This document shows, piece by piece, positions 2,138 to 4,246 of a stretch of 4,246 nt of DNA. The stretch lies in the IMG/VR virus record IMGVR_UViG_2645727970_000009. The stretch is one strand, 5' to 3'. This DNA comes from a virus (lineage: Duplodnaviria > Heunggongvirae > Uroviricota > Caudoviricetes). The translations under genes and the position numbers were made by a program. Position 1 is the first letter of the stretch. The number at the start of each line of letters is the position of its first letter. The notes under the pieces are model-generated. The model saw only the letters and a list, made by a program, of their open reading frames with translations, was not told the DNA's origin and ran no database searches.

Positions 2138-2512
2138 ATGCGTATAGAGTTTGTTTTGCTTTACCCGCCGACGGTGAACACCTACTGGCGACGTCGTGGC
2201 AGCACATATTTTGTATCAAAAGCCGGTGAGCGTTATCGCCGGGCTGTGGCGCTTATTGTTCGCCAGCAGCGGCTGAAATTAAGCCTGTCCGGAAGGCTGG
2301 CGATAAAGATTATTGCCGAGCCACCGGATAAGCGCCGCCGTGACCTGGACAATATTCTGAAAGCGCCGCTGGATGCGCTGACACATGCGGGGTTGCTAAT
2401 GGACGATGAGCAGTTTGATGAAATCAATATCGTTCGTGCTCAGCCAGTATCTGGTGGACGTCTGGGGGTGAAGATTTACCCCATAATGCTTGAAGGGCAG
2501 GTCAAAAAATGA
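2138..2512 (+). CDS. rusA: RusA-family Holliday junction resolvase (124 aa)
   Basis: AAGAGG Shine-Dalgarno 6 nt upstream of ATG 2138; translation contains LLYPPTVNTYW and the acidic catalytic cluster PDKRRRDLDN...LMDDEQ that parallels E. coli RusA (PDRRRRDLDN...LDDAQ, from memory); conserved position immediately upstream of Q as in lambdoid nin regions. Confidence 0.85.
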   Translation: MRIEFVLLYPPTVNTYWRRRGSTYFVSKAGERYRRAVALIVRQQRLKLSLSGRLAIKIIAEPPDKRRRDLDNILKAPLDALTHAGLLMDDEQFDEINIVRAQPVSGGRLGVKIYPIMLEGQVKK

Positions 2513-3330
2513 AACTGGAAGATTTACCGAAATACTACTCCCCAAAATCCCCCGGCCTGACTGATGCATCGGCCTCAACGTCGAAAGATACGCTGAGTAT
2601 CACTGATGTGATGGCCGCGCAGGGCATGACACAGAATTGGGCTGAGATGGGGTTTTCTGCGTTCCTTGGGAAAATGGGCATTAGTATGAATGACAGAGAG
2701 CGGGCAACAGAATTGCTGACAGAATATGCACTCAGTCGGTGTGATCGCGTGGCGGCGTTAAGAAAACTCCCGGCAGAAATAAAACCGGCAGTGATGCGTA
2801 TTATGGCTTCGTATGCGTTTGAAGATTATGCCCGTAGCGCGGCGAGCAAAAAACAGTGCCCCTGTTGTCACGGAAAAAAATTTATTGAAAGCGAGGTTTT
2901 TACAAACAAGATCCAGTATCCGGATGGTAAGCCGCCAGTGTGGGCAAAGTGCACAAAAGGCGTGTATCCGTCTTACTGGGAGGAATGGAAAAAAGTTAGG
3001 GAGGTGGTAAAAGTTGCCTGTCCGGAGTGTGGAGGGAAGGGGGAGGTTTCCACCGCCTGTAAAGATTGTCGTGGGCGCGGTGTTGCCATTCATCGTGAAG
3101 AGTCGGTAAAACGTGGTATGCCTGTTATCAGAGACTGCCAGCGTTGTGGTGGTCGTGGCTATGAAAGATTACCTTCAACGGAGGCATTTAATGCCATATG
3201 TAATGTAACCGATGCCATATCTCTTGATACATGGAAAAAAACAGTTAAACGTTTTTACGATACGCTGGTGGTGCAGTTTGATATTGAAGAAGCATGGGCA
3301 GAACAACAACTGAAAAAGGTGACCAGATAG
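2509..3330 (+). CDS. Q: Lambda-Q-family late-gene antiterminator (273 aa) with expanded Cys-rich zinc-binding region
   Basis: ATG 2509 overlaps the rusA stop (ATGA). N-terminus MKLEDLPKYYSPKSP...TDVMAAQGM, central ASYAFEDYARSAA, and C-terminus TWKKTVKRFYDTLVVQ...KKVTR parallel lambda Q (MRLESVAKFHSPKSP..., ATFAYADYCRSAA, TWSRTVKPLYDALVVQ...NAVTR, recalled). Followed immediately by a pR'/qut-like site and terminator. Confidence 0.85.
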   Translation: MKLEDLPKYYSPKSPGLTDASASTSKDTLSITDVMAAQGMTQNWAEMGFSAFLGKMGISMNDRERATELLTEYALSRCDRVAALRKLPAEIKPAVMRIMASYAFEDYARSAASKKQCPCCHGKKFIESEVFTNKIQYPDGKPPVWAKCTKGVYPSYWEEWKKVREVVKVACPECGGKGEVSTACKDCRGRGVAIHREESVKRGMPVIRDCQRCGGRGYERLPSTEAFNAICNVTDAISLDTWKKTVKRFYDTLVVQFDIEEAWAEQQLKKVTR

Positions 3331-3332
3331 CT

Positions 3333-3363
3333 TTGTTGATTTTTCCCGAATCTGTGGTAAATT
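3333..3363 (+). promoter_or_regulatory. Late promoter pR'-like (Q-dependent late operon promoter)
   Basis: -35 candidates TTGTTG (3333-3338) or TTGATT (3336-3341); -10 TAAATT (3358-3363) embedded in GGTAAATTTG, matching the lambda pR' -10 context GGGTAAATTTGACTC as I recall it; located 3 nt after the Q stop. Confidence 0.55.
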
Positions 3364-3386
3364 TGCCCTAACGATGGGCGTTTTAT
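3364..3386 (+). promoter_or_regulatory. qut-like initial transcribed region with sigma70-dependent pause-inducing element (AACGATGGG)
   Basis: AACGATGGG at 3370-3378 is identical to the -10-like pause element at the start of the lambda pR' transcript (recalled as ...CAACGATGGG...). Predicted transcription start near 3370. Confidence 0.4.
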
Positions 3387-3410
3387 GCCTGACGTTAGAA
3401 GATTTTTTAC

Positions 3411-3434
3411 ACCCGTCGCCAGGCGGGTTTTTTT
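3411..3434 (+). terminator. tR'-like rho-independent terminator of the short pR' leader transcript
   Basis: Hairpin CCCGTC-gcca-GGCGGG (3412-3427, one G-U pair) followed by seven T (3428-3434), about 65 nt downstream of the predicted start. Confidence 0.7.
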
Positions 3435-3497: not shown

Positions 3498-3930
3498 GCT
3501 GGCTTTTTCGACAAGAGTTATTGGTGTGTCACGTTAACCGGAAAAAGGAAAGTTTGAGAAACGCGATCTGGCACAGGCGGTGATTAACGCCGCATACCTG
3601 GTGGCCTGTGCAGATGGTGAATGTGAGGCTTCCTAGAAAGCGAAGATCGAACAGGTACTGCGTAATCAGCCAGCGCTGTCCGCGTTTACGTCAGAAATTA
3701 ATGCGATTAGCGCAACCATTATCGGTCAGCTGGATACGAACTTTAAAACTGGTCGTCGTGCGGCGTTACGTGAGATCGAGGATGTGAAACACGATACGCG
3801 TGAAGCGGAAGATGTGCTGGATGTGGCGGTGGCCATTGCGGAGGCAGACGGCGAAATTGAGCCGGAAGAGCGCAAGGTGCTGGAAGAGATTGCCGGTGTT
3901 CTGGGGCTTCGTCTGGAGAATCACCTGTGA
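3498..3930 (+). pseudogene. TerB-family (tellurite-resistance TerB-like) gene remnant with nonsense and frame lesions
   Basis: Frame 1 from 3538 reads PEKGKFEKRDLAQAVINAAYLVACADGECEAS*KAKIEQVL...VAIAEADGEIEPEERKVLEEIAGVLGLRLENHL*, showing the paired ADG-x-acidic motifs of TerB (recalled ...VASDGVSSEEKQKM... and ...AKSDGNFDDDEKSAVREIARSLG...). In-frame TAG at 3634-3636 sits where TerB has Glu. No in-frame start exists upstream (TAA at 3535-3537); a possible N-terminal piece (GFFDKS, frame 3) ends at TGA 3555-3557, consistent with a +1 indel in the A5 run 3542-3546. 5' boundary is approximate. Confidence 0.5.
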
Positions 3931-4094
3931 CGGTAAAACTGCGCCTGGCTGTGGCTGCACTCCTGCTGTTTCTGGTGGTGATGGTGGATTTCACCAGCAG
4001 AATCATGTCGGTGCTGGCGGATGGGGGGCTGGTCTGCGGCATTGTGGTATTGCTGTGGCCGGTGATAAAAAGAAACAGCCTGCATAATGCTTGA
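3927..4094 (+). CDS. Hypothetical small hydrophobic protein (55 aa from GTG; 37 aa if ATG 3981), probable two-helix membrane peptide
   Basis: GTG 3927 overlaps the TerB-like stop (GTGA) with GGAGA (3915-3919) 7 nt upstream; translation VTVKLRLAVAALLLFLVVMVDFTSRIMSVLADGGLVCGIVVLLWPVIKRNSLHNA has two hydrophobic stretches; stop TGA 4092-4094 followed by a T7 run. Not in the ORF track because it is shorter than 60 aa. Confidence 0.35.
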   Translation: MTVKLRLAVAALLLFLVVMVDFTSRIMSVLADGGLVCGIVVLLWPVIKRNSLHNA

Positions 4095-4150
4095 TTTTTT
4101 TGTTTACTGTTTATTAAAAATACTACTGCATGGTGAATCCCCCTGTGCGG

Positions 4151-4169
4151 CTGTCTCTTGATCAGATCT
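4151..4169. repeat. Terminal inverted repeat of the IS (IS50 IE-type 19-mer)
   Basis: Exact 19/19 match to the recalled IS50 inside-end sequence; contains two GATC Dam sites. Confidence 0.7.
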
Positions 4170-4183
4170 CCTGATCAAGAGAC
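4153..4183. repeat. Perfect 13-5-13 palindrome (GTCTCTTGATCAG-atctc-CTGATCAAGAGAC) carrying three GATC sites
   Basis: Read directly from sequence; arms are exact reverse complements; overlaps the IS terminal repeat and the last codons of the transposase. Confidence 0.9.
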
Positions 4184-4246
4184 TTCATCACCAGGTAACC
4201 CTCAACCATATCCTGAAGTCTGAACCAGCCATCCCACATGACGACC
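4162..4246 (-). CDS. Transposase C-terminal fragment (IS50/Tn5 Tnp-like), partial, 28 codons in window
   Basis: Minus-strand translation ...VVMWDGWFRLQDMVEGYLVMKSLDQEI* resembles the Tn5 transposase C-terminus (...ALWEGWEALQSKLDGFLAAKDLMAQGIKI*, recalled); stop is the reverse complement of TCA at 4162-4164. Confidence 0.6.
   Translation of the reverse strand, partial: VVMWDGWFRLQDMVEGYLVMKSLDQEI

Follow-up and report, generated by a model that had tools for sequence, protein, structure and literature searches.

The Q protein of phage lambda is an antiterminator of the Q-lambda family, which corresponds to PF03589 (Yin et al. 2022, PMC9388147). Its body, formed by residues 61–113 and 153–207, is a four-helix bundle with a helix-turn-helix, and its arm (residues 114–152) is a zinc ribbon with the element order B1-H3-B2 (PMC9388147). 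The arm contacts positions 11–13 of the Q-binding element, while the arm tip (residues 133–137) contacts region 4 of sigma; residues 110–112, 117 and 122–126 contact the zinc-binding domain of the β' subunit of RNA polymerase (PMC9388147). Here we describe a relative of lambda Q with a larger arm, encoded at positions 2509–3330 of a 4,246-nucleotide stretch of DNA (the window) from the Caudoviricetes record IMGVR_UViG_2645727970_000009. Judged by its sequence, the 273-residue product appears to be a functional-looking Q-lambda antiterminator of an E. coli lambdoid prophage, in the common long-arm form of the family. We consider it probable that this arm holds two tandem zinc ribbons, one from cysteine motifs 1 and 2 and one from motifs 3 and 4, and that the ribbon absent from lambda Q is ancestral and has been lost repeatedly.

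The gene is an open reading frame on the plus strand with an ATG start, encoding 273 residues and a stop codon; this start codon and the stop codon of rusA, the gene before it, overlap (ATGA). The protein matches PF03589 with an E-value of 4.7e-50 (168.1 bits, against a cutoff of 26.7) and, over its whole length, PHROG 127 (phrog_127, ‘anti-termination protein Q-like’; E 1.8e-112). In a phmmer search of PDB chains lambda Q (7ubm_Q; E 9e-41) was the sole solved structure matched. The matches to PF03589 and lambda Q bear out an original prediction, made from the window alone, that this is a 273-residue lambda Q homologue. The alignment is colinear and takes in the N-terminal nozzle segment, with residues 1–113 aligned to lambda Q 1–113 and residues 182–273 to lambda Q 116–207. 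Residues 114–181 have no lambda Q counterpart (68 residues against 2), a net gain of about 66 where an insertion of about 65 had been proposed, and because of this gap they are treated as an extra segment. From the anatomy of lambda Q, the extra segment therefore sits exactly at the junction of body and arm, inside the polymerase-contact surface.

Both the body and the arm of the Q-lambda family are recognisable. The full-length AlphaFold model matched eight lambda Q chains in Foldseek, with E-values from 6e-13 to 1e-6 and target-normalised template modelling scores of 0.64–0.73, and C184, C187, C210 and C213 align with the cysteines of the lambda Q arm. The gene is also placed as expected for the family, at the end of the nin/rusA region and directly upstream of a late promoter, a pause element and a terminator. 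The protein belongs to the long-arm subgroup, the phi80 Q and YdfT/QuuQ type, as it has four conserved cysteine pairs of which the first two are separated by a variable hairpin. Its first part (residues 1–113; 2509–2847) comprises the N-terminal segment and the first half of the helical Q body, with AlphaFold helices at 31–112. The extra module (residues 114–181; 2848–3051), delimited by the alignment gap and by predicted strands, contains motif 1, a long β-hairpin with a variable loop, and motif 2. It is followed by the counterpart of the lambda Q arm with motifs 3 and 4 (residues 182–219; 3052–3165), which aligns with lambda Q 116–152, and by the second half of the body (residues 220–273; 3166–3327), which aligns with lambda Q 153–207 and includes the helix-turn-helix region and the C-terminal helix (predicted helices 223–233 and 239–272).

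All four CxxC motifs that had been read in the protein are found, each on the plus strand: C117-P-C-C120 (motif 1, CPCCHGKK; 2857–2868), C171-P-E-C174 (motif 2, CPECGGKG; 3019–3030), C184-K-D-C187 (motif 3, CKDCRGRG; 3058–3069) and C210-Q-R-C213 (motif 4, CQRCGGRG; 3136–3147). The remaining cysteines are at positions 78, 119, 148 and 231. In agreement with the original prediction, such motifs occur just twice in lambda Q, as CRDCHGTG at 118 and CGRCKGVG at 144; motif 3 aligns with its C118/C121 and motif 4 with its C144/C147. Conservation was assessed in an alignment of 109 full-length homologues with 55–95% identity. C171, C174, C184, C187, C210 and C213 are invariant in this set, and 108 of the 109 have C117 and C120; the glycine two residues past the second cysteine of each motif is kept. 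A distant set was also assembled, with one representative per 50%-identity cluster from a search over about 15 billion proteins. Full-length representatives down to about 30% identity repeat the four cysteine pairs; among them motif 3 is CxxC or CxC, the latter in many. The extra cysteines are thus conserved among homologues, and the four-motif pattern is not a product of chance.

The extra module varies from 28 to 77 residues among relatives, and its segment between motifs 1 and 2 is highly variable in both sequence and length. Because the knuckles are invariant while the sequence between them runs free, a structural metal site is indicated. Furthermore, in intact proteins motifs 1 and 2 either occur jointly or are jointly absent.

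The structure of the arm region was predicted with AlphaFold in the full-length protein (mean predicted local distance difference test score, pLDDT, 78) and separately for residues 108–224 (mean pLDDT 75), and the order of elements is identical in the two models. Strand 114–116 and motif 1 are followed by strand 125–136, a loop with two short helices, strand 159–170 and motif 2; the second half consists of strand 179–181, motif 3, strand 192–194, helix 196–202, strand 207–209 and motif 4. In both models motifs 1 and 2 lie at the two ends, that is at the base, of one long hairpin of 12 + 12 residues. Motifs 3 and 4 flank the strand-helix-strand unit at 192–209, the same order of elements as in the lambda Q arm (B1-H3-B2). 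Structure prediction had been proposed as a check on whether the additional cysteines form a second zinc ribbon. The models agree with the proposal in that motifs 1 and 2 close a hairpin of their own; a tetrahedral second site may be supposed from this arrangement.

Two zinc sites are likely, since eight cysteines are conserved, motifs 1 and 2 are predicted at a hairpin base and motifs 3 and 4 match the lambda Q ribbon. The earlier suggestion that four CxxC pairs could bind two zinc ions thus gains a likely second four-cysteine (Cys4) site from conservation and predicted topology, with occupancy by zinc itself presumed. As to which motifs would pair, a sequential arrangement (1 with 2, 3 with 4) is favoured by lambda Q, which carries equivalents of motifs 3 and 4 only and forms its zinc ribbon from them. 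The Pfam alignment of PF00684 (DnaJ_CXXCXGXG) points the same way: it puts Q motifs 2, 3 and 4 on DnaJ motifs 1, 2 and 3, and therefore the DnaJ 2 + 3 pair corresponds to the Q 3 + 4 pair. The literature searched contained no account of a second zinc site in the long Q proteins, an absence which does not prove that none has been published.

The history of the extra module was approached by counting long and short forms among full-length sequences, namely the 273-residue query, lambda Q and the cluster representatives. Of 37 full-length clusters, 32 have the four-pair form and five the two-pair form (lambda Q, P0184, P0168, P0194 and P0270). In quick neighbour-joining trees of the shared body columns (about 207 columns, 100 bootstraps) the short forms are scattered over three or more positions and are monophyletic in 0 of 100 bootstraps. 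The most direct comparison is between P0132 (269 residues, four pairs) and P0168 (200 residues, two pairs), which are sisters in 100 of 100 bootstraps and near-identical outside the arm; P0168 cleanly lacks the stretch from motif 1 up to motif 3. This clean difference leaves an intact motif 3–4 unit, which favours sequential pairing, and the sister pair indicates that the extra module is most likely an autonomous structural unit. Contigs carrying P0132 and P0168 were sought so that their promoters and Q-binding elements could be compared, but scans of viral, genome and metagenome contigs gave only irrelevant motif matches, and tblastn against phages found no close relative.

What precedes the first knuckle in the short forms (A/N-R-C) looks like the residues ahead of motif 3 in the long forms, not those ahead of motif 1, which fits a deletion from motif 1 to just before motif 3. 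Since the two-motif forms are never monophyletic, repeated loss is suggested: the sequences compared suggest that the two-ribbon arm is ancestral and that several derivatives, lambda Q among them, are reduced. The original prediction had presented the four-motif arm as an insertion into a lambda Q homologue. This framing is probably backwards, because the four-motif form is the family norm and the short forms are polyphyletic. A second Cys4 module appears, from these comparisons, to be the normal state of the known family and not a special insertion.

Several points weigh against this account. Model confidence within the extra module is moderate (pLDDT about 70–83). The trees were built by a quick method, and recombination in the mosaic lambdoid phages could transfer arms; gain instead of loss could thus explain the distribution. 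Finally, the B. subtilis protein anti-TRAP aligns over residues 167–195 of the query, that is motifs 2 and 3; in anti-TRAP neighbouring motifs share one zinc, and the alignment would thus favour pairing of motif 2 with motif 3.

That pairing belongs to the alternative which survives best, although we judge it improbable: a true DnaJ-type arrangement, in which zinc pairing is nested (motifs 1 + 4 and 2 + 3), the arm is one V-shaped two-zinc domain, and lambda Q re-paired its motifs after a deletion. A likeness to DnaJ is evident at the level of the motifs. Motifs 2–4 fit CxxCxGxG, as does motif 1 in many relatives (CPCCHGKK in the query), and the DnaJ/Hsp40 cysteine-rich domain (PF00684; PDB 1EXK) and anti-TRAP (2BX9) share with the query repeated CxxCxGxG knuckles at similar spacing. 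PF00684 matches residues 171–218 with an E-value of 4e-7 (30.6 bits, under the gathering cutoff of 32.7), and in a later Pfam version it is precomputed as a match on most homologues. With the full model, the first Foldseek match after the lambda Q chains is the DnaJA2 cysteine-rich region (E about 0.8). Searched in isolation, the module had its highest-ranking structural matches, all of them weak, in DnaJA2, anti-TRAP and the cysteine-rich domain of E. coli DnaJ, and a viral structure library returned only weak matches, to DnaJ-like cysteine-rich-type and small cysteine-rich proteins. The first knuckle of lambda Q is also about as distant from the body helix as motif 1, a point in favour of this alternative.

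Beyond the motifs the resemblance to the four-repeat DnaJ zinc module, which the original prediction had remarked on, is not sustained. A Pfam scan of the 273-residue protein found neither a J domain nor a DnaJ C-terminal domain, NCBIfam DnaJ matches are limited to the cysteine-rich region and lie far under cutoff, and, unlike in DnaJ, the module sits within a DNA-binding helical body. The likely pairing differs too, being sequential in Q and nested in DnaJ. What tells against nested pairing is the ribbon that lambda Q makes from its equivalents of motifs 3 and 4 alone, the register of the PF00684 alignment and the intact 3–4 unit of P0168.

Less probable still is that the extra cysteines bind no second zinc, being a relic, forming disulfides or serving the same single site, so that the 68-residue segment would be a passive loop. 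Motif 1 of the query is missing its second glycine (CPCCHGKK), both the sequence and the length of the hairpin that links motifs 1 and 2 differ widely among relatives, and the short forms work without the module; lambda Q, for one, works with only the ribbon equivalent to motifs 3 and 4 (PMC9388147). Against this, the four cysteines and the following glycine are near-invariant from 95% down to about 30% identity where the intervening sequence is free to vary, and in intact proteins motifs 1 and 2 are present or absent as a unit. Disulfides are also unlikely because the cytoplasm is reducing. A recent lineage-specific insertion, or an artefact of assembly or annotation, might be imagined from comparison with lambda Q alone and can practically be dismissed, since the long-arm architecture is widespread, with a cluster of 4,648 members, 556 complete E. 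coli genomes, phages of five genera, phi80 and K-12 Qin.

Proteins that have motifs 2–4 without motif 1 were also seen; they consist of a Q C-terminus joined to DUF968, RusA or an unrelated N-terminus and, as prophage deletion products, they give no evidence on pairing. Such reading frames are many; the database proteins P0203, P0205, P0208, P0212, P0242 and P0254 carry a QuuQ-type Q C-terminus, starting from motif 2 or 3, on such N-termini, DUF968 and RusA included, and look like recurrent prophage deletions that removed the Q N-terminus. A variant with 85% identity (P0001, 337 residues) has a second copy of residues of about 96–177, covering the end of the body, motif 1, the hairpin and motif 2, placed before the regular sequence; only one 1.8-kb contig carries this variant, and either a rearrangement or an assembly artefact could account for it. 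Most long-form Q proteins have a precomputed match to the newer Pfam family PF27659.1, whose position on partial proteins is inconsistent.

There is nothing unusual in the gene, its family or its context, and all are annotated already. In RefSeq the protein corresponds, at 100% identity, to WP_000762928.1 (‘antitermination protein’, annotated on pDCE7-1), and its 90%-identity cluster contains the 4,648 member sequences mentioned above. At least 80% of the window is found in the 556 complete E. coli genomes; 249 phage records match, 131 of them with one match that by itself spans 80% or more of the query. The long-arm architecture occurs in phages of Escherichia, Salmonella, Klebsiella, Erwinia and Yersinia. 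The protein is also 100% identical to quuQ of the Stx2a-converting phage Stx2_EH1910, where the gene is followed by a methylase gene, three tRNA genes and stx2AB; in this part of the phage sequence (region 4001–8079) the identical allele lies about 2 kb upstream of stx2A and stx2B. The long-arm Q is therefore presumably the antiterminator which drives Stx2a expression in some Shiga toxin-producing E. coli.

Three described proteins allow closer comparison. Lambda Q shares the N-terminal segment, helical body, zinc-ribbon arm and C-terminal helix, as well as the downstream layout of promoter, pause element and terminator, but has 207 residues, one zinc ribbon and about 41% identity in the common parts. 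Phi80 Q (gp17, 269 residues) resembles the query in its four cysteine pairs, located at 115, 169, 182 and 207, and in the sequence of its hairpin (FTEAQVFTNKVSYPWGKPP); downstream of Q, pR', a Q-binding site and a terminator are annotated in the phi80 record. Phi80 Q differs in having about 40% identity, a CxC motif 3 and another promoter spacer sequence. Guo and Roberts reportedly studied phi80 Q alongside lambda Q in 2004. YdfT/QuuQ of the cryptic prophage Qin of K-12 (b1559, 250 residues) is 40% identical over its full length and has the four motifs. Its neighbourhood, hokD-rem-ydfU-Q, is like that of the window, whereas its hairpin between motifs 1 and 2 is shorter and Qin has no rusA between ydfU and Q.

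Directly 3' of the Q stop codon, the sequence can be aligned column for column with lambda pR' and with the pR' and Q site annotated in phi80. A consensus promoter scan did not call positions 3336–3363 a promoter; by this alignment, a pR'-like late promoter on the plus strand would consist of a -35 element (TTGATT, 3336–3341), a 16-nucleotide spacer and an extended -10 element (TGGTAAATT, 3355–3363). The spacer TTTTCCCGAATCTGTG (3341–3356, +) is a candidate Q-binding element and is common to phage mEp237, whose Q is 56% identical. Six bases past the -10 box, the same distance as in lambda, is AACGAT (3370–3375, +), a -10-like sigma-dependent pause element conserved with lambda, mEp237 and phi80. 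The sequence TAACGATGGG is conserved in the window, lambda and mEp237, and the phi80 version is TAACGCTGGG. An intrinsic terminator with a 7-pair stem (5 G-C) and a T run follows at 3411–3434 (+), at the place equivalent to the annotated phi80 terminator, and is presumed to be the target of Q. Short-arm lambda Q, long-arm phi80 Q and the 273-residue Q all face the same promoter geometry, and therefore the extra ribbon needs no different layout.

The arrangement at 3336–3434 is the same, base for base, after the identical Q gene of Stx2_EH1910. It would give a short transcript of about 65 nucleotides, much shorter than the lambda 6S RNA of 194 nucleotides. A second terminator-like hairpin at 3364–3380 (TGCCCTAACGATGGGCG then TTTT) overlaps AACGAT, at the very start of the predicted late transcript; this hairpin may have arisen by chance, or it may play a part in pausing or early termination.

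By homology with lambda Q, the 273-residue protein would bind the Q-binding element in the late-promoter spacer through its helix-turn-helix and arm, and would load onto RNA polymerase paused at the AACGAT element; a role of the sigma-dependent pause element in loading is described for lambda Q (PMC9388147). With NusA, its N-terminal part would then refold into a nozzle at the RNA-exit channel, and the polymerase carrying Q would read through the terminator at 3411–3434. Loading, nozzle formation and read-through are established for lambda Q (PMC9388147), and are expected here by analogy. Within the arm, motifs 3 and 4 (C184, C187, C210 and C213) would form the lambda-type ribbon, while motifs 1 and 2 (C117, C120, C171 and C174) would close a separate, length-variable β-hairpin as a second ribbon, each ribbon having two CxxCxG knuckles. 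The hairpin would emerge at the junction of body and arm, next to the residues whose lambda Q equivalents touch the β' zinc-binding domain. The second ribbon is most likely an autonomous module which the family had from the start and which several lineages, that of lambda Q among them, have lost.

Everything known about the structure of the Q family, and most of what is known about its mechanism, comes from lambda Q, which on present evidence is a minority, reduced form. Most of the diversity of the family has a second conserved Cys4 module, including phi80 Q, K-12 QuuQ and the Q allele upstream of stx2a. This module is covered by no solved structure, and any role it may have at the polymerase-contact surface, together with the likely reduction of lambda Q, is what remains of interest in an otherwise familiar gene. 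A tentative proposal, which we hold to be possible and somewhat doubtful, is that the ribbon of motifs 1 and 2 acts as a functional second arm contacting RNA polymerase, sigma region 4, NusA or DNA by the Q-binding element and tunes loading and late output, including that of Stx2, with lambda Q a stripped-down derivative of an ancestral two-zinc antiterminator. An influence of the module on loading or promoter specificity, if there is one, would matter for the strength with which different prophages turn on their late genes and Shiga toxin.

The gene order in the window is hokD, rem, a hypothetical gene, DUF968/ydfU, rusA and Q. A Hok/Gef-family toxin reading frame (PF01848) occupies 67–261, annotated in RefSeq as hokD at 106–261, and a rem homologue lies at 478–729, a hokD-rem neighbourhood as in K-12 Qin. 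The DUF968/YdfU protein at 1037–2125 (RefSeq start 1076) bears CxxC and His motifs, and its C-terminal part weakly matches HNH nuclease models (PF16784, 1e-4; several HNH PHROGs). Between the late terminator and the remaining late region are a TerB-family gene (3568–3930), annotated as a pseudogene with an internal stop, and a gene for a small DUF3927 membrane protein (3927–4094). Prophage homology ends at 4150 in all top E. coli matches. The last 120 or so bases (about 4125–4246) match the end of the IS4-like element ISEc13, and the late region is therefore interrupted there.
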